53,218 nucleotides of DNA, taken from a virus (Duplodnaviria; Caudoviricetes). Below the pieces are notes generated by a model. It searched no databases. It had not been told where the DNA came from and was given only the letters and a program-made list of their open reading frames with translations. The number at the start of each line of letters is the position of its first letter. Position 1 is the first letter of the stretch. Position numbers and translations under genes: made by a program. The DNA lies in the IMG/VR virus record IMGVR_UViG_3300032116_000277, positions 1 through 53,218 of that record; one strand, given 5' to 3'. Positions 1,926-46,610 of the stretch are shown here, in pieces.

Positions 1926-2894
1926 TTAGTTCTCCAACTTTTTATTCAGAATGGGGACTAATCTGTCACGCACTTCCCGTGCAGTATAATCTCTGATAGA
2001 GTCAGATACATCTTTGCTCATTGGTAGTACAGCTGTCTGGACACCTGGGTACACTTCTTGGTAACGTTCCATGGCTTTTATTCCTGCTTCGTCATAGTCA
2101 AAAAGAACAACCACCTTTTTGTACTTTTTCAGGTACTCATTCATTAGCTCCTTTTTGATCAGGGAGTTCTCTGAGTCTGGGGCTATGATGTCTATAGAAA
2201 GCTTTAGACTTTTTAGAGACATGATATCTTTAAGAGAACTGGTTATGATTAAAAATGGGTGGTTTTTAATCTGTTCAGAACCTTGAACATAGTCAGAAAC
2301 TTTAATGAACTTCTTATCCAGGGTCTTTGGTTGGTAGATTTTGTAAAGACTGCCGTCTGCTTTATGATATCCGTATAGATAGTTTCCTTTGATACAAAGT
2401 TCTTTATCATCTTTTATCATATAGTATGACTCTAAAGGAATCACATGGTGCTCAGTTAAAAGCTTGGTTCCAATATTAAACTGGGTCCAGAAATACTGAT
2501 CCGATGTATTCCACTGTCTAGACTTAGTAGACGATACTTTGTATTTACTTGCCTGTTTAAACTCTTGAAGATCATAGCCTCCGTTGTTATGCAGGACAAA
2601 GTCATTATACTTTTCTACTACCTGCTGACAAGCTTTATAGTATGAAAGCTGGGTAATATCTTTAACCAGATCTATTGCAGAGCCATATTTACCTGATGAG
2701 AAATCCTTATATCTGTATACGTTATCCTTATTAAGATAAATACACATGCTAGGAGTACGTTCTTTAGGATTGAATATACTCTTGATTTTTACGTCATGAC
2801 CGTTAAGCTTTTCTTTGAGCTTGCAAAAGTGCTCAAATATCCAGGACACCGGGACATCTTTGACGTCATGCACTAAGTTTTTTGTAATAAACAT
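1926..2894 (-). CDS. DNA primase (Toprim)
   Basis: N-terminal SIFNPKERTPS...YKDFSSG; Toprim-like ITSSLKDIMSL, FDYDEAG, KDVSD; located in the replication cluster. Confidence 0.8.
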   Translation of the reverse strand: MFITKNLVHDVKDVPVSWIFEHFCKLKEKLNGHDVKIKSIFNPKERTPSMCIYLNKDNVYRYKDFSSGKYGSAIDLVKDITQLSYYKACQQVVEKYNDFVLHNNGGYDLQEFKQASKYKVSSTKSRQWNTSDQYFWTQFNIGTKLLTEHHVIPLESYYMIKDDKELCIKGNYLYGYHKADGSLYKIYQPKTLDKKFIKVSDYVQGSEQIKNHPFLIITSSLKDIMSLKSLKLSIDIIAPDSENSLIKKELMNEYLKKYKKVVVLFDYDEAGIKAMERYQEVYPGVQTAVLPMSKDVSDSIRDYTAREVRDRLVPILNKKLEN

Positions 2895-2960
2895 AGCAGC
2901 GGTGTTAGAAATAAAAAATGGGGACTAGTAAAAACCAGTCCCCGTGATAACCATTAAACC

Positions 2961-3572
2961 TTACATTGAAAAATCATCAGTGGCTGGCTCAAAGCTTCCA
3001 ACAGTCTTTGTTACTAAAGCTTTATAGTGATACTTATTTGATTTATCAAACTTGTCAAGCTTAGCTTCATCAATAGAAACAAACTTGTATTTTGGCAGAG
3101 ATAGTTTTACAATAGTCTTTCCATTGTATTCTTCCTCTGTACCCTTTAAGAACCAATATAAGTTCTGACCTTTTACTAGATCAATTACTTCTTTAACCCA
3201 TTCTTCAATGGTGTTAGCCTGAATAGAATCTAGTTCATGTTTAAGACCAAGTTCTGTAGCAATAATAGTTAGCTTATACATGATCTCATTACGAGATACG
3301 TTTGTATTAGCAAACTCGTCAGTCCACATAGTGGCTCCAACACGAGCTGTCTGACCTTTGTACTTAGGTCCATCAGGGTTGTCTTTGTCAATTGGCCATC
3401 CTTCAAAGTTTTCAAGAGCTGGTCCCTCTAAATAGAGTTCCAGTACTTTCTTGTCACCTTTGTTTGATGTACGCAGTTGACCACTGTTAATGTGAGCATA
3501 AACTACTCCGGGGTTAAATGACTTGGAAGAACCGCCACTTTGTTTTACTTCCTGTCCGCTTGTACTGAACAT
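2961..3572 (-). CDS. Putative single-stranded DNA-binding protein
   Basis: Between the AAA_24 ATPase and primase; acidic/aromatic C-terminal tail (ATDDFSM). Inferred from context. Confidence 0.4.
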   Translation of the reverse strand: MFSTSGQEVKQSGGSSKSFNPGVVYAHINSGQLRTSNKGDKKVLELYLEGPALENFEGWPIDKDNPDGPKYKGQTARVGATMWTDEFANTNVSRNEIMYKLTIIATELGLKHELDSIQANTIEEWVKEVIDLVKGQNLYWFLKGTEEEYNGKTIVKLSLPKYKFVSIDEAKLDKFDKSNKYHYKALVTKTVGSFEPATDDFSM

Positions 3573-4289: not shown

Positions 4290-4865
4290 TTACTTAGATG
4301 TTGATTTTATAAGTTCGTTAAGCCATGTTTTAGCACTAACAGGTTTGCCTGTAGTAATAGCCATAAAGTCACGGATTGTCATCTCGCTGTATGGACCATC
4401 TTCCATAGGAGCAGGTGCTTTATAAGCTGTAACTTGTTTTATGTTTTGAGGCTTAGCTGTTTCTAGTAACGCTGATTGACCATTGATAGCAACACTTTGT
4501 GCATCAATAGCTCTTAGCTCTTCTAACGGTACTAGATAAGAACCTTTTTCATTGATCTCATACTCCTCTTCAAATGAAGAGTTATATGGTATACGATATA
4601 CTGTTCGGTTAGGATCTGCTGGTTCTAGATCACGAGTGATTAGTTCAAAGTAGAATCCTTTTTCTTTCTTAAACTCAGATGCAAAAATTCCAACTACCAT
4701 TCTAGCTTGCTTATCATAGAAAGCCATCTTCATATTGAAGTCTGTTCTAGGAATGCCAAGGTTATTAATTAACGACTGATGGTAGTCTCTGACTTCTTCA
4801 AGTCTTTGTTTCTTAAACTCTTTGACATCGTCTTGAGTTAGTGTTTGTTGTGATGTGTTGAACAT
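4290..4865 (-). CDS. Hypothetical protein
   Basis: 191-aa ORF within the operon. Confidence 0.7.
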   Translation of the reverse strand: MFNTSQQTLTQDDVKEFKKQRLEEVRDYHQSLINNLGIPRTDFNMKMAFYDKQARMVVGIFASEFKKEKGFYFELITRDLEPADPNRTVYRIPYNSSFEEEYEINEKGSYLVPLEELRAIDAQSVAINGQSALLETAKPQNIKQVTAYKAPAPMEDGPYSEMTIRDFMAITTGKPVSAKTWLNELIKSTSK

Positions 4866-4876
4866 GTGATTGTGTT

Positions 4877-5938
4877 TTAATCTAATTCACTACCAATAGG
4901 AGCAGATATATTTCTTGTACCTCCACCTCCTGTTCTTTGTGAATAACGTAAGTATGTTCCGTCAGGTCTTGTTGCTGTGAACTCTGGTACTTCTACCATA
5001 CGCTGGTTCTTGCCATCCATTTTTAGGAAGACAATACTTTTTTGTTCGTCACCATTACGTACTTTAAGAAGGTGCATAAAGACATCTTCTTTGTTTACTT
5101 CGTAAGCATAAGGACCGTATGAACGAATGTCAGATTTAAAAGGTCTTGATAGAGCTACTACCATATCAGATCCTTGCATCAGTGCGTCACCGCCAAAGAT
5201 GTCAGAGCTTGTAGGATAGTTTGCAATAGACCCAGGTGTTTTACGTGAAGACTCATCCATGGATCTGTTTAACTGAGTGATCATTACAACAGTAATAGGA
5301 ATCTCATTTTTTAATCTCATGAGAACTTCTGTTGTGTTGTAGAGAACATCAAACTTATCTTTTTCTGAGCTTGTTCTTTTGATAAGCCAACTGTGATCTA
5401 TTGTAACAATCATTGGCTTACGTCCGCCATCCACGTACTTGATCTTTATAGCGTCTTCTATTTCTTTGTGATTAAGAGATATAGGAAACATATCTCTGTG
5501 TATTCCTTTAGAAAAAAGGAACTTCGTTTCTTGGATATACTGTTTAGCTCTTTCGTAGATAAAATTATCTAACGCTTTTTCTGTACTTAAGATGACTCCA
5601 TAGTCTTCAGCAACCTCAGCTGCAAACTGACGTGCTGCGTACTGCTTGGCACCCATCTCAAACTGGAACTCAACAATATTAAACTTCTGATCAGGATTAA
5701 GGCGGTGTGCTTCTCTTATTATTTGAGAGGCTATCATAGTCTTTCCTGCACCAGGACGTGCACCGATAGTGAGCATAGATCCCCACTCAAGTCCACCAAC
5801 GCCTGCTTGATTAAAGCCAGGCCATGGTGTCTTAAGAGACTTGATCTCACCGGTCATTCTCTTTTCTATGTATGTCAAACCTTCTTCTAGAACGCTGACA
5901 TAACTTCTGCATCCGTATTTTTCTTCTGCTAGCCCCAT
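4877..5938 (-). CDS. dnaB: Replicative DnaB-like (SF4) helicase
   Basis: GARPGAGKT, QFEM, VTIDH, ITQLNR, SDIFGGDALMQGSDMV, KVRNG. Confidence 0.85.
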   Translation of the reverse strand: MGLAEEKYGCRSYVSVLEEGLTYIEKRMTGEIKSLKTPWPGFNQAGVGGLEWGSMLTIGARPGAGKTMIASQIIREAHRLNPDQKFNIVEFQFEMGAKQYAARQFAAEVAEDYGVILSTEKALDNFIYERAKQYIQETKFLFSKGIHRDMFPISLNHKEIEDAIKIKYVDGGRKPMIVTIDHSWLIKRTSSEKDKFDVLYNTTEVLMRLKNEIPITVVMITQLNRSMDESSRKTPGSIANYPTSSDIFGGDALMQGSDMVVALSRPFKSDIRSYGPYAYEVNKEDVFMHLLKVRNGDEQKSIVFLKMDGKNQRMVEVPEFTATRPDGTYLRYSQRTGGGGTRNISAPIGSELD

Positions 5939-9784: not shown

Positions 9785-10267
9785 ATGAACCTTAGAGGTT
9801 ATTTTATAATGCTATTCTGTACTGTGTGGGTATCATCATACTCACAAAGTATATATATTGATAGTGTACGGAACAATATTCCTACTGGTCCGCTTACTGC
9901 TAATAAGAATCTAAGCTTTGGTGTAAAGAACATCTTGGCTGAAGTGCTTCAGGACAAAGGACTTGACCTGCTTCCTAAAAAGTATGAGGGTGAACTAAGT
10001 CTAGTTACGGAGATATACTTCTTTGATATCGTACAGACAAATGGTGGTGTTTCTGTCTTTAAAAAGCAGAGTAATACTACTATTATGGGTTTGAAAGGCA
10101 TGCTATATAAAAACGGCAAGCTTGTAAGCTCAAAGAAAATTGAAGAGTCTTCTTCTGAAATAGTTATGGCCAACTTGGTCGTACCTGAGGATGGAAAACC
10201 TAATCAACAATCTGTTAGTAACGTAATCAAAAAAGCCTGTCAGGCTTTAATTGACAAACTCCTATGA
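9785..10267 (+). CDS. Secreted protein, short CsgG/TolB-N-like paralogue of 14657..15424
   Basis: Signal peptide ending SYS-Q; LSFGVKNILAEVL resembles VGLGVTNIIVEYL; NQQSVSNVIKKA resembles NQSTIGITTKKA. Confidence 0.5.
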   Translation: MNLRGYFIMLFCTVWVSSYSQSIYIDSVRNNIPTGPLTANKNLSFGVKNILAEVLQDKGLDLLPKKYEGELSLVTEIYFFDIVQTNGGVSVFKKQSNTTIMGLKGMLYKNGKLVSSKKIEESSSEIVMANLVVPEDGKPNQQSVSNVIKKACQALIDKLL

Positions 10268-12165
10268 TAAAAAAACTTTTGCTTGCTTGCTTTCTTCTTC
10301 TTTCAACACTCACTTACTCACAAACAATCGGACACTTTCAGCAGTTAGCTAGTGTAAAAAGAGGAGATACTTTAGATGTGGCGTGGTACTACCAGCCTAG
10401 TGGTTCTGTGGATATCAGAACGTTTCAGGTTGACTTTCAGTTTAAGAAGGACCTGTTTACGCATCTGAGTACTCACATAGACACTCCGTATGTAACTACT
10501 GGTCGTCAGCCTCAGCTGGACTATAGACAATTTAATGACTATAAGTACAGTGGGTATAGTAATGGAAGTTATGTCTACTCTGCAGACAATGCCTGGTCAG
10601 TAGGACGTAACTATCTTACGCTTCCTGCCGGCAGTGGATTTGGTACAAACAATGGATACATAATCCATAATAAGTTTAAGATCAATGCTGTTGCAGCCAA
10701 CTTCGTATCAGATACGATTACTGTTAACTGGGCAAGACTTTTTAGAGTAGACGGTACCAGTATAGGAGATAACGTAGCAACGCTGACTAATAAGAAGCTT
10801 GCTATTTTCTTACAAGGTAACCTGACTATCTCTGGTAAAATATGGATGGGTGCTAGTACTGGCCTTCCTACACTTATTGCTTATGATAACAATACAGGTG
10901 TAGAAGCATCACGTACAGTTCCTGCTGCAGATGGTACTTATACATTAAGTAACATAGAGCAGAACACTAAGTATAAGATTAAAGTAGTGTTTCCTCAGGA
11001 TAGTTTGATCACAATGCGTGACCGTGCTGTTACTGTAGCAGATGCTGTAAAGACTTTAAATGAGTTTAAGAATGCTGATATTAATCAGAACTTTCCAAGG
11101 ACGTATCTAACCAACGGCTTGGCTTATTTGATAGCAGATGTTAGCCGTAATGGAGTATTAGATGGTGGTGATCCTTATAACATCTATGCTTCTGTATCAG
11201 GACTACAGCCAATTGATACAGCTCGTCTTGTGAATGTATTCTTGAAGAATGAGTTTGACTCATTGGCTATGGGTGCAAACCAGTGGACCACTTGGGCCAA
11301 TAACCGTGATAAAGGTTTGTTTGTATATGACTCTGTGACTACAGTTAACTCTACAAACATTGATATCAAGTATATGTTACTGGGTGACGTAGATCGTTCT
11401 CACTCTTCACCAGTATATAATGCACAGGGGCAACTTGTAGCTCGTACAATATACCGTGGTAACATAAATGTAACTGTACCTGATACTTATGTAAACAATA
11501 CACAGCCTTTGTATGTACCGTTTAACGTAAGCTACGCAGGGTACAAGAACACAGGTTTACAGTTTGAGATGAAGTATGATCCTGCGGTTGTTCGTTTTGA
11601 GCAGATCCAGTCTAACATTGACGGACCTTGGCTTCAGTATGTAACTAACGACAGTATAAAAGGTATAGTAAGGTTTGGTGGAATGAATAACCAGGATAAG
11701 GGTTTCTTAACTGGAGACTTTACTCCTTATAAGCTTAAGTTCTCACCTAAGAATCCTGGTACAGACATCACCAGCTTTGTATATGTGAGGCGTTTGATGG
11801 ATGCATCTGATGAAAACGGTGATCACTACAACATTGTGTTGCAGTCAGACCGTATAGTTCTTAGTTACCGCATGAATGGAGGAGGTCCAGTATTTGCAAA
11901 CATGGAGCCTACTATCACGGTAAATCCTAATCCGACTACCGGCATGTTTGAGGTAGTAGTATTTCTACCAAAGAACAGCAACATGAATGCACTGGTCTAT
12001 GATATGCAAGGTAGACTTATTATGGACTTAGGTAAGTTCAAAACAGAAGACACTGAGTTTACATTTCGTAAACCAGTATCAAGTTCTAGCATGCCTGTAG
12101 GTATGTATAATCTAGTATTATTTGATAACCGTAAACGTATAACAACTAAACTAATAAAATCATAA
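10264..12165 (+). CDS. T9SS type-A CTD cargo protein with cohesin-like and dockerin-like modules
   Basis: Signal peptide TYS-Q; cohesin-like VKRGDTLDV..FQVDFQF and VPFNV..GLQFEMKYDPAVVRF; ADVSRNGVLDGGD; C-terminal VNPNPTTG..VYDMQGRL..GMYNLVL..TTKLIK. Confidence 0.8.
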   Translation: MIKKLLLACFLLLSTLTYSQTIGHFQQLASVKRGDTLDVAWYYQPSGSVDIRTFQVDFQFKKDLFTHLSTHIDTPYVTTGRQPQLDYRQFNDYKYSGYSNGSYVYSADNAWSVGRNYLTLPAGSGFGTNNGYIIHNKFKINAVAANFVSDTITVNWARLFRVDGTSIGDNVATLTNKKLAIFLQGNLTISGKIWMGASTGLPTLIAYDNNTGVEASRTVPAADGTYTLSNIEQNTKYKIKVVFPQDSLITMRDRAVTVADAVKTLNEFKNADINQNFPRTYLTNGLAYLIADVSRNGVLDGGDPYNIYASVSGLQPIDTARLVNVFLKNEFDSLAMGANQWTTWANNRDKGLFVYDSVTTVNSTNIDIKYMLLGDVDRSHSSPVYNAQGQLVARTIYRGNINVTVPDTYVNNTQPLYVPFNVSYAGYKNTGLQFEMKYDPAVVRFEQIQSNIDGPWLQYVTNDSIKGIVRFGGMNNQDKGFLTGDFTPYKLKFSPKNPGTDITSFVYVRRLMDASDENGDHYNIVLQSDRIVLSYRMNGGGPVFANMEPTITVNPNPTTGMFEVVVFLPKNSNMNALVYDMQGRLIMDLGKFKTEDTEFTFRKPVSSSSMPVGMYNLVLFDNRKRITTKLIKS

Positions 12166-37972: not shown

Positions 37973-38182
37973 TCAAGCTTTAGATAATTTTTCTTCTAGA
38001 TCTATACATACAACTAAAGATGGAATCCAACCAAGAACTACCATAAAAAAGCCTATACCACCGCTAGTGGCGGCCTCTCGGAAAGTCCCTGATTCCATGC
38101 ATAAATATGTAAGTGTAGATAAGCATAACCAGGTAATTAGTAATGTACCTAGAAAGCCAAGCATAAGAATTGTTCCTTTCAT
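37973..38182 (-). CDS. Small membrane protein (2 TM)
   Basis: Hydrophobic segments, GWIP. Confidence 0.6.
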   Translation of the reverse strand: MKGTILMLGFLGTLLITWLCLSTLTYLCMESGTFREAATSGGIGFFMVVLGWIPSLVVCIDLEEKLSKA

Positions 38183-38379
38183 AATGCGTTTCTTTTTTGT
38201 GAACGATTTGGTTTGTAAGGAAAAGCTCTGCGGTAATCAGATTCTAATGTGTCGTAAATGTCAGACCATTGTTTTTTCAAGCCATCAGTACGAAATGTCC
38301 ATACAGATACAAGAACTTCCCATAACAAGAATGGGATTGCAAGAAGACTTAATCCTAAGATTTTTAATAAGTACTTCAT
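38179..38379 (-). CDS. Small membrane protein
   Basis: N-terminal hydrophobic helix; ATGA-coupled to the next gene. Confidence 0.55.
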   Translation of the reverse strand: MKYLLKILGLSLLAIPFLLWEVLVSVWTFRTDGLKKQWSDIYDTLESDYRRAFPYKPNRSQKRNAL

Positions 38380-38408
38380 TTTGTTTGAGGTTGGTTAAAA
38401 AATATTTT

Positions 38409-38509
38409 TCTCCCTCTGCACTCAGTTGTAAGGCCCGCCCATAGAATTAACTATACGCTTGGATTCTTACAACTGCTAGCCCTTGGGAAGCTAGGATGGT
38501 GCATTAAGA
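38409..38509 (-). ncRNA. Twister ribozyme (type P1, with P5)
   Basis: UCU-UAA-UGCA-CC-auc-CUAGC-UUCCCAAGG-GCUAG-CAGUUGUAAG...CUUACAACUG-ag-UGCA-GAGGG-AGA. P2, P4, P5 and both pseudoknots (CCC/GGG, CC/GG) can form; predicted cleavage between U38506 and A38505. Confidence 0.8.
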
Positions 38510-39580
38510 TTCTGACAGGCTGAGTGTTGACCTACAGATACTATCGTTTTCATAGAGTTACCTCTACTTATACACACGGTGGATTACTCCATCGTAGATA
38601 GCAGTACCAGTGTTTAACCTCACTCCTGAGGGATCTTTCTCGCGGGTTACATAGACTTTGATTTCTACCAAGCGGACTGGATGGTCCTAAGCTACATCCC
38701 TGCAGCTACTTAGATATACTTTCTCTATCTCACAGCGTTCCTTGCGGTACTGGCTGTGCTGTCATATTACAGACAGATAAGGTACTTTGACCCAGAGAAC
38801 TAACAGACTGTTGCGTTAATTAATTAGTATTAAATAACAATAGCATAATCCAGGACGTGCCGTTAGAGTATAGCTCACTCCCTTTTGAGGAATGCGTACT
38901 ATAACGCCCCAGTGCAGGTTACCAGCCCACGGTATATTCAAGACCCTGTTACCAGGCCTTAAGTATACTGGATAACGCAGTAAGTCTCTTGGTAAAGACC
39001 TTCCACATGTATCCTACAGGTTTCATCCTATTGCGGTTTCCCGCTCAACAGTGTATGCTGACACTGTAGTTACTCAGGGGTTTCCCCACTGCAACTGTTA
39101 CCCGTTTGCTTACTCGGCCGGTATTACTACCGTAGATGTGCTCTTGTTAAGACACACCTTTTATACCTGTCACCAGGTTTATCCTAACGACCATAAGCGG
39201 CCGTGTCAATTGGTAGCTGATCAAGTCAGCTTAACGCACACACCGTGAGTATTTAAACTCTGAAGGTTTGACATTGTGTGCTTTGCACTATGGTTCTCAC
39301 TCGCAAAGAGAAGACCGAAGCCAACTCACCCATAGCGGATATACATTCAGGTATATCAGCCTACATAGACGCACGTGCTGTCTATTGCCCCCATCAACTT
39401 AACGGGTTAGTGCCCCATATACAACGCTCGGTTCGTCAACCAAGCCTTCTGTGACACGAGAAGCAACGTAAGTGAACCCAGTGGCCTAAGCCAGCCAGGT
39501 TCACCAATATTATCAGGTATCTCCAGTGATACCTATAACATAGTAATACTATATAGTACTGGTATGTTAGGGTATCTGTA
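38510..39580 (-). ncRNA. Candidate large (about 1 kb) structured ncRNA(s) rich in GNRA hairpins
   Basis: Minus-strand UAGAG-GUAA-CUCUA, GGA-GUAA-UCC, CCUG-GUAA-CAGG, GCGG-GAAA-CCGC, GGG-GAAA-CCC, CGGUA-GUAA-UACCG; no credible ORF. Confidence 0.55.
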
Positions 39581-39586
39581 GAGATA

Positions 39587-39814
39587 CTATTCAGTATCAT
39601 CATCAGCTTCTACAAGAGAGTAGAGGTGAGACCAGGCGTCAATAAGATCTGACATCTCAGACTTAAGTTCCTGCCACCGTGTGTAATCTTTGCCGGGTGG
39701 TATCTCATTCCAAGAACCGTTAAAACGGTATAGCTTGGTAATCACCTGAATTACTTCAGCACATTCTTCGGCTAAGGTGAGTGCTGGGTCACCTTGATTC
39801 TTATACAGAGCCAT
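39587..39814 (-). CDS. MazG-like NTP pyrophosphohydrolase
   Basis: LAEECAEVIQVITK...LKSEMSDL (ExxE / ExxD). Confidence 0.75.
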   Translation of the reverse strand: MALYKNQGDPALTLAEECAEVIQVITKLYRFNGSWNEIPPGKDYTRWQELKSEMSDLIDAWSHLYSLVEADDDTE

Positions 39815-46536: not shown

Positions 46537-46610
46537 CGCGGGGTGGTGTAACGGTAGCACACTGGGCTCATAACCCAGGAATCCTAGTTCAACTCTAGGC
46601 TCCGCAACCA
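46537..46610 (+). tRNA. tRNA-fMet (CAT), initiator type
   Basis: C1:A72 mismatch, CTGGG-CTCATAA-CCCAG with three G:C pairs, encoded CCA. Confidence 0.9.

Follow-up and report, generated by a model that had tools for sequence, protein, structure and literature searches.

A stretch of 53,218 nucleotides of Caudoviricetes DNA, the IMG/VR virus record IMGVR_UViG_3300032116_000277 (hereafter the window, meaning this whole stretch), carries on its minus strand, at positions 38509-38409, an element that we assign to the twister class of ribozymes. Judged from sequence and comparative analysis, it would be a new subtype invisible to the Rfam models and very probably self-cleaving, a reading to which we give a probability of about 0.8. 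The element stands immediately behind a GOLLD RNA, the 3' end of which it most likely forms. The subtype is apparently common in freshwater phages and is defined by the lack of stem P3, by a long stem P5 that carries an insert of variable size and replaces the usual A-rich joiner, and by a probably swapped pair in the second twister pseudoknot (T2). Four points are established here, namely a fold based on covariation, membership in a large family, the identity of the upstream RNA as GOLLD and the repeated presence of ribozymes behind it.

The twister elements listed in the preliminary description of this DNA are all present on the minus strand between 38509 and 38409, in the order UCU, U/AA, UGCA, CC, AUC, P4, P5, A-G-UGCA, GAGGG and AGA. 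The 5' strand of P1, UCU (38509-38507), pairs with AGA (38411-38409) over 3 bp, the length originally given for this stem. It is followed by the UAA loop (38506-38504), in which alignment by eye to the UAA of the Rfam twister-P1 consensus places the predicted scissile bond between U38506 and A38505. The 5' strand of P2, UGCAC (38503-38499), has GUGCA (38421-38417) as its partner. Based on family pair counts, the next nucleotide, C38498 (C14), is the predicted T2 partner of G38482, and a pairing of C38499 with G38481 is also possible. Beyond the joiner AUC (38497-38495), the P4 hairpin (38494-38476) pairs CUAGC (38494-38490) with GCUAG (38480-38476) and is closed by the loop L4, UUCCCAAGG, at 38489-38481. 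P5 occupies 38475-38423 and consists of a 10-bp stem, CAGUUGUAAG/CUUACAACUG (38475-38466 with 38432-38423), and a 33-nt insert. An unpaired A38422 then leads into the 3' strand of P2, the two together covering 38422-38417, and into GAGGG (38416-38412), of which G38414-G38412 form the first pseudoknot (T1) with C38485-C38487 and G38416 adjoins P2. G38416 and A38505 would be the catalytic residues, by analogy with the twister class.

The minimum free energy fold of the minus strand contains P2, P4 and P5 as described, with the outer helix shifted by one register from P1. It has an energy of -38.6 kcal/mol (z = -4.0), a stability that none of 200 shuffled sequences equalled. A twister descriptor requiring UAA, a 4-bp P2, a T2-compatible pair, at least four of the five P4 pairs, the loop motif and T1 complementarity to GA plus 3 nt matched the window once, at the element, and gave 0 matches in 300 block-shuffled windows scanned on both strands.

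Relatives of the element were sought in IMG/VR, from the records of which the loci designated below by L-numbers are taken. A scan with two motifs of the element's 5' half returned at least 120 stretches, and a fitting 3' half was found in 87 of the 125 pattern matches listed. The remaining 38 had no exact 3'-half motif in reach: about 30 of them are chance matches inside coding DNA, while the others are cut by a contig end or have a slightly variant 3' half. All 38 were excluded from this first count, and some of the 38 were re-admitted by a looser regular expression. With the latter, the full layout was recognized in at least 93 elements representing at least 90 distinct sequences, the window included. 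This layout is constant and reads UAA, UGCA(C), C, a joiner of 3-4 nt, a 5-bp P4, UUCCCAAGG, P5, one A, (G)UGCA and GAGGG. P5 starts with CAG...CUG, the stretch from P4 to the single A measures 19-183 nt among the listed members, and P3 is absent throughout the listed family. GAGGG is found in 86 of the 90 listed members (GAGGA and AAGGG in two each); UAA was imposed by the search pattern or expression in all 90 and is uninformative on conservation. The P5 inserts fall into sequence classes that recur across contigs, for example in L009, L044 and L049, and in L013 (7979-8122), L043, L070 and L103. They resemble independent structured modules, and such variable inserts might tune the timing of the cut.

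A covariance model, R1, built from 32 relatives with the window excluded, gave a single match in the window, at 38512-38406 on the minus strand, with 90.2 bits and an E value of 1.4e-22 under a rough calibration. By nucleotide similarity, a blastn search of 50,697 phage records with 38406-38530 returned chance-level matches of 21-24 nt only, and blastn of 38150-39650 against phage records returned none. R1 also detected five copies at 27-39 bits (L003 7441-7635, L040 8441-8573, L082 1558-1673, L020 2425-2583 and L155 8052-8157), in which P5, GUGCA and GAGGG are kept, AAUCAG(C/U)... replaces the UAAUGCACC half and P4 is shortened; these either descend from one decayed lineage or represent an arrangement of another kind.

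The missing Rfam match (see below) and the fact that the motifs were first picked by eye could be taken to mean that a 3' extension of GOLLD happens to resemble a twister. We consider such a coincidence hardly credible, as it is refuted by the absence of the descriptor from the shuffled windows and by the E value of R1. Furthermore, the GOLLD 3'-end motif precedes only 4 of the 93 listed elements and is not found before 86 of the 90 distinct ones.

Compensatory changes support P2, P4, P5 and T1, the pseudoknot that marks the twister class. Among the 90 listed members, 447 of 450 P4 cells are paired through 18 distinct stem combinations, and P5 likewise occurs in many stem variants. In an alignment of 32 sequences from which the window was left out (A3), the whole structure scored above each of 500 shuffles by all five measures used and above all slid controls, with double changes in 5 of 5 pairs of P4 and 9 of 10 pairs of P5. 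RNAalifold alone recovered P2, P4 and P5 and did not predict P1. Because the scan pattern had fixed both P2 and the loop, additional copies were sought by R1 alone. These have P2 as UGUA/UACA, as UGCG/CGCA or with U-A at the fifth pair, and they include double changes in T1: the loop UUCACAAGG is paired with GAGUG in L069, L010 and L138 (C-G to A-U), and the loop UUUCCAAGG with GAGGA in L015 7451-7603 (C-G to U-A). A further alignment (A4) of 21 sources, the window plus 20 of 160 loci picked to include such variants, was aligned to the model, which biases it towards the structure, and displays double changes in 3 of 5 pairs of P2, 5 of 5 of P4, 10 of 10 of P5 and 2 of 3 of T1. The T1 events in A4 are one change from C-G to U-A and three from C-G to A-U. 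Overall, 91.9% of its cells are paired (P2 100%, T1 98.9%) versus 75.5% in shuffles. The third T1 pair is also A-U in the Rfam-detectable twisters of L160. The twister identity first proposed is thus upheld by a family of at least 90 members, by compensatory changes in P2, P4, P5 and T1, and by an Rfam twister at the same GOLLD position in another phage.

The T2 pair between positions 14 and 30 is C-G in 90 of 90 listed members and that between 13 and 31 is C-G in 87 of 90, the T2 position being G-C in the Rfam consensus and A-U in one L160 copy. The preliminary description had read T2 as CC/GG instead of GC/GC; its departure from the usual pairing fits a comparison with the Rfam consensus (GCC ... 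AAGC), and the second of its two pairs is less certain, position 13 being also able to pair with position 40. For P1, the 90 listed members have a mean of 2.36 contiguous pairs, versus 1.12 +/- 0.11 with shuffled partners, and at least 3 pairs in 39 of 90 cases, versus 12% in the control. Across the family, P1 thus appears weak but real.

The long noncoding RNA that had been noted upstream of the element was identified as GOLLD, a giant RNA of phages that reportedly assembles into a 14-mer cage. Its conserved 3' domain (38912-38517, minus strand) matches the RF02032 model from position 1 to 416, end to end, with 88.6 bits and an E value of 2.8e-23. This score is below the gathering score of 150, a value that none of the 20 GOLLD matches from related IMG/VR records reaches either (73-132 bits). 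The Rfam model represents the 3' domain only. A 5' domain would extend over 39265-38913, judging from the lack of a long minus-strand open reading frame (ORF), none of at least 60 aa being found between 38380 and 39435, and from RNA-library contigs that reach to about 39242-39268. A 7-nt spacer (38516-38510), which has equivalents in L055, L070, L138 and L133, separates the end of the GOLLD model from P1, and the predicted cut falls 11 nt past the last base of the model (38517). A promoter and terminator scan of 38200-39700 found one promoter-like site, versus 3.2 expected, and none between GOLLD and the ribozyme.

A survey of RNA libraries yielded 20 runs from 17 studies, labelled freshwater, lake, riverine or aquatic, with 11-32% of the sampled words; four runs (X1-X4) were placed on the window as assembled contigs only. 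Contigs of four runs from different studies span about 38531-39268. Contig depth on GOLLD reaches about 830 in X1 versus 7-11 on flanking genes, which is compatible with an abundant, stable GOLLD RNA, contig depth being a poor measure. One X1 contig spans 38079-38410, none spans 38411-38530, and the GOLLD contigs stop at 38531, 38546 and 38617 (X2, X3 and X4, respectively). The uncovered stretch and the unequal stops constitute no evidence either way on cleavage or on the ribozyme staying with the mRNA.

To see what sits at GOLLD 3' ends, two GOLLD motifs at the right spacing were used to collect 35 IMG/VR stretches, and 33 records were searched. GOLLD was confirmed at E<=1e-5 in 20 of the 33, which together with the window makes 21 counted loci, near-duplicates included (L055/L148, L130/L156, L141/L142/L143, L128/L137 and L129/L150). 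The 13 unconfirmed records were left uncounted; they include L157 and L146, both with P5-type twisters beside a GOLLD-like region. Within 15 nt past the GOLLD 3' end lies a P5-type twister in 5 of the 21 loci (window, L055, L148, L070 and L138), a decayed copy in one (L144, from the same record as L001), an Rfam twister-P1 in one (L133 550-609, 52.9 bits, E 7.6e-11), a pistol ribozyme in two (L156 2050-2111, 56.5 bits versus a cut-off of 34.5, and L130 by its identical flank) and a tRNA in two (L141, and L142 by the same flank). One locus reaches its contig end there (L143), and in the other nine the sequence is U-rich or unclassified. The finding of three unrelated cutters, i.e., two twister subtypes and pistol, plus tRNAs at one position suggests that a cut there is what is selected. 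That cleavage, as predicted, would define the 3' end of the upstream RNA is accordingly a claim of the preliminary description that gains backing from the recurrence of ribozymes across GOLLD loci. The tRNA of L141 (623-692, minus strand) begins 8 nt past the GOLLD 3' end, where RNase P could set the end of the RNA.

Several GOLLD RNAs are bracketed by ribozymes. In L160, one twister (2334-2421) precedes the GOLLD 3' domain (2781-3182) and another (3192-3251) follows it. P5-type twisters bracket GOLLD in L055 and L148 (3709-3852, GOLLD 3' domain 4367-4761, 4765-4842, with a third at 4929-5105). GOLLD might thus be matured by interchangeable cis-acting cutters (P5-type or classical twister, pistol, tRNA) that flank it on the 3' side and, in several phages, on the 5' side as well, the RNA being excised out of a long transcript of the phage as a "ribozyme-RNA-ribozyme" cassette, a generalization to which we would give even odds. 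The twister 5' of GOLLD or of a GOLLD-like region has a P2 of the type UGUAC/GUACA and the 3' copy one of the type UGCAC/GUGCA in five of five cases, the 5' copies being L055 3709-3852, L148 14007-14144, L157 8830-8967, L118 6167-6344 and L146 5728-5822. The flanking Rfam-type twisters of L160 also differ in P2; among these loci GOLLD is confirmed for L055, L148 and L160 only. Unlike P2 stems in the 5' and 3' copies could prevent mispairing between the two ribozymes. Further upstream in L160 lie another twister and, about 1.7 kb before the twister-GOLLD-twister cassette, a RAGATH-1 hammerhead (612-700, 64.1 bits versus a cut-off of 56.3), so that several ribozyme classes are found within one phage region. 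Transfer-messenger RNA genes were also seen on phage contigs with the twister family or GOLLD (L017 69-403, L082 7798-8271 and L136 9958-10424).

Several observations weigh against a functional twister at 38509-38409 and have to be set beside this evidence. The subtype has no P3, unlike the RF03160 consensus, and has P5 and one A where the latter has a UAAA joiner. The preliminary description had proposed a search with the Rfam twister-P1 model as a check, and no match at E<=10 was obtained for the element. The Rfam twister models (P1, P3, P5 and sister) found nothing at E<=10 in either 1.5 kb or 131 nt around it, RF03160 run alone on the record gave zero matches, and five relatives with a short P5 likewise have no Rfam twister match. 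Position 13 can pair with position 40 instead, extending P2 to 5 bp, and this alternative also covaries (C-G 28, U-A 3), so that T2 may be a single pair. P1 counts 0-1 adjacent pairs in 38 of the 90 listed members and no more than three in the window element. In much of the core and at the base of P5, sequence conservation goes beyond what pairing demands, which could reflect recent spread. Finally, L001, the nearest relative among those listed, has only a decayed copy (4441-4600) behind its GOLLD. This close relative has 85% protein identity to the window in one neighbouring gene, and its intact copy (2764-2911) is located behind a terminator-like hairpin and before two small ORFs, with about 1.1 kb between it and the GOLLD 3' domain further downstream. 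The decayed copy implies that the 3' ribozyme is dispensable in at least one phage.

As to the Rfam result, the absent P3 positions and the 53-nt P5 insertion plausibly account for it, and a missing match is a failed membership for the curated model, not evidence against the fold. At gathering scores, Rfam finds in the window only a tRNA (46537-46607, plus strand, 58.6 bits), about 8 kb from GOLLD, with the anticodon loop CUCAUAA, i.e., CAU. Two other twister-like arrangements were rejected. The circularly permuted type-P5 twister (RF02684) is excluded by a P5 closed by its own loop, a P1 open to the flanks and the lack of an Rfam match, and twister-sister is ruled out by the lack of a match at E<=10.

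Part of this evidence would also suit a twister-derived RNA that no longer cuts and of which the fold is kept as an mRNA 5' leader, a protein-binding site or a transcription signal. The rejection of the element by the Rfam models, the loss of P3 and of the A-rich joiner, the weak P1, the decayed or partial relatives (L001 4441-4600 and the five copies without the UAAUGCACC half) and the replacement by A of the G next to P2 in two of the 90 listed members all lean this way. We nevertheless regard a silent ribozyme as unlikely. The most conserved nucleotides are those of catalysis and of the active-site pseudoknot, with CCC/GGG repaired by double changes and with the near-constant GAGGG, as well as the UAA that the search required. 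Moreover, pistol and Rfam-type twisters, which are unrelated in sequence, occupy the same place behind GOLLD and point to cutting as the shared need. According to a review (PMC6154101), twisters can cleave without P1, and P3 is optional.

Alternatively, the family could be a selfish repeat acting at the DNA level, such as a miniature mobile element passed among phages, with an incidental RNA fold. It is true that contigs may carry multiple copies (three each in L055 and L148, two each in L013, L084 and L157), that the core is near-identical over many contigs and that L001 has its intact copy elsewhere. Yet the compensatory changes preserve RNA helices and a pseudoknot, the elements are strand-specific relative to neighbouring genes, 41 of 48 are intergenic, and an ATG follows 19 of 90 at a fixed distance of 30-36 nt. 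The inspected flanks, looked over with no formal test, displayed neither terminal inverted repeats nor target duplications. A purely selfish repeat thus appears improbable, considerably more so than a silent ribozyme, although mobility and ribozyme function are not mutually exclusive.

For an active twister ribozyme, the sequence of events would be as follows. The element would be co-transcribed with the upstream GOLLD and the downstream genes as one RNA. Once P2, P4, P5, T1 (C38487-85 with G38412-14) and T2 (C38498/99 with G38482/81) have formed, the RNA would cut itself between U38506 and A38505. GOLLD would be freed with a short 3' tail ending, as expected from the twister class, in a 2',3'-cyclic phosphate, and the downstream mRNA would keep a 5'-OH and the folded ribozyme as a leader, 32 nt before the ATG at 38379. 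Such a cut might be of benefit by giving GOLLD a defined end and by uncoupling the fate of an abundant noncoding RNA from that of the mRNA.

On the downstream side, the element is followed in the window by a 29-nt A/U-rich leader (38408-38380) and a 66-aa ORF that starts at ATG 38379, 32 nt after GAGGG, the leader and ORF together covering 38408-38179 on the minus strand. The downstream gene block encodes a helicase and AAA ATPases; PHROGs supplied almost no names for nine neighbouring proteins. Across the family, an ATG-started ORF of at least 40 aa begins within 200 nt downstream of 61 of the 90 listed elements, and in 19 of the 90 it begins 30-36 nt after GAGGG. ORFs cover 47.9% of the downstream sequence on the same strand and 5.4% on the opposite strand. 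Many of the listed elements without a GOLLD end motif sit behind a hairpin. Given the few GOLLD neighbours, the upstream hairpins and the co-oriented ORFs, the family seems to represent a module that these phages use for transcript processing in general, with GOLLD as one client.

An ORF of the window (10264-12165, plus strand, 633 aa) encodes a C-terminal sorting domain of the type IX secretion system (Por_Secre_tail, 28.5 bits). The element also occurs on five contigs of metagenome-assembled genomes, two of them in Chitinophagaceae or Sediminibacterium bins. Together with the labels of the RNA libraries, the sorting domain and these bins suggest phages of freshwater Bacteroidota.

These results bear on two questions. 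The role of genomic twisters in bacteria and phages is described as undetermined in the part of PMC6765202 that was available, and reviews, as far as their accessible text goes, place bacterial twisters near phage genes and leave their role open. Likewise, the function and biogenesis of GOLLD are described as unknown in the available text of a cryo-electron microscopy preprint (bioRxiv 10.1101/2024.12.08.627333), in which the string "self-cleav" does not occur. A full-text literature search, which did not extend to the GOLLD paper of 2009, the twister paper of 2014, a Yale thesis of the latter year or supplements, returned no report of an association of GOLLD with twister or with self-cleavage. 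The present finding connects the two questions, the ribozyme being located where GOLLD must end. If true, excision of a cassette would give phage twisters a defined biological function. Testable questions follow on the origin of the GOLLD ends and on whether defined ends matter for cage assembly. Additionally, since the Rfam twister models miss a subfamily of at least 90 distinct IMG/VR copies, censuses of phage ribozymes are probably too low.

Among known systems, the closest is the type-P1 twister (RF03160, clan CL00120), the consensus of which consists of P1, UAA, a 4-bp P2, GCC, P3, P4 with the loop GUCCCAAGCC, UAAA, P2', GAGGG and P1'. The window element has its parts in the same order, contains UCCCAAG in the P4 loop and has open P1 ends, which is the type-P1 topology; both pseudoknots are possible in it, T1 being backed by covariation. 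Apart from the stems and joiner already discussed, it differs from RF03160 by having CC instead of GCC in L2, a loop that ends in G instead of C, one extra U in L4 and a P2 of up to 5 bp. The first two differences would compensate each other, amounting to one T2 pair swapped from G-C to C-G. The accessible part of PMC6154101 puts the frequency among twisters at 21% for P0, 78% for P3 and 1% for P5, whereas a long P5 is present in every listed member of the window subtype.

The Rfam twisters of L160 and L133 (record G007) occupy the same place as the window element, starting 9 nt after the GOLLD 3' end, with a second one just 5' of GOLLD. Two copies have a P5 hairpin, and that at 1092-1176 in L160 has a single A between P5 and P2'. 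They differ by keeping P3, by a T2 of GC/GC or AC/GU, by one A-U pair in T1 and by scoring 33.9-52.9 bits with RF03160; the sole match of R1 in L133 and L160 coincides with the Rfam twister, at 13.5 bits (E 0.71). The pistol ribozyme (RF02679) of L156 and L130 belongs to another self-cleaving class with a fold unrelated to twister, starts 5 nt after the GOLLD 3' end and would do the same job. Pistol cuts near its own 3' side, so that most of the ribozyme would stay on GOLLD, while twister cuts near its own 5' side. Finally, the HDV-like theta ribozymes, as presented in the available portion of PMC10879173, are also small phage ribozymes found beside a noncoding RNA gene, with a proposed role in its maturation, but they belong to another ribozyme class, have a tRNA as partner and come from the gut habitat.

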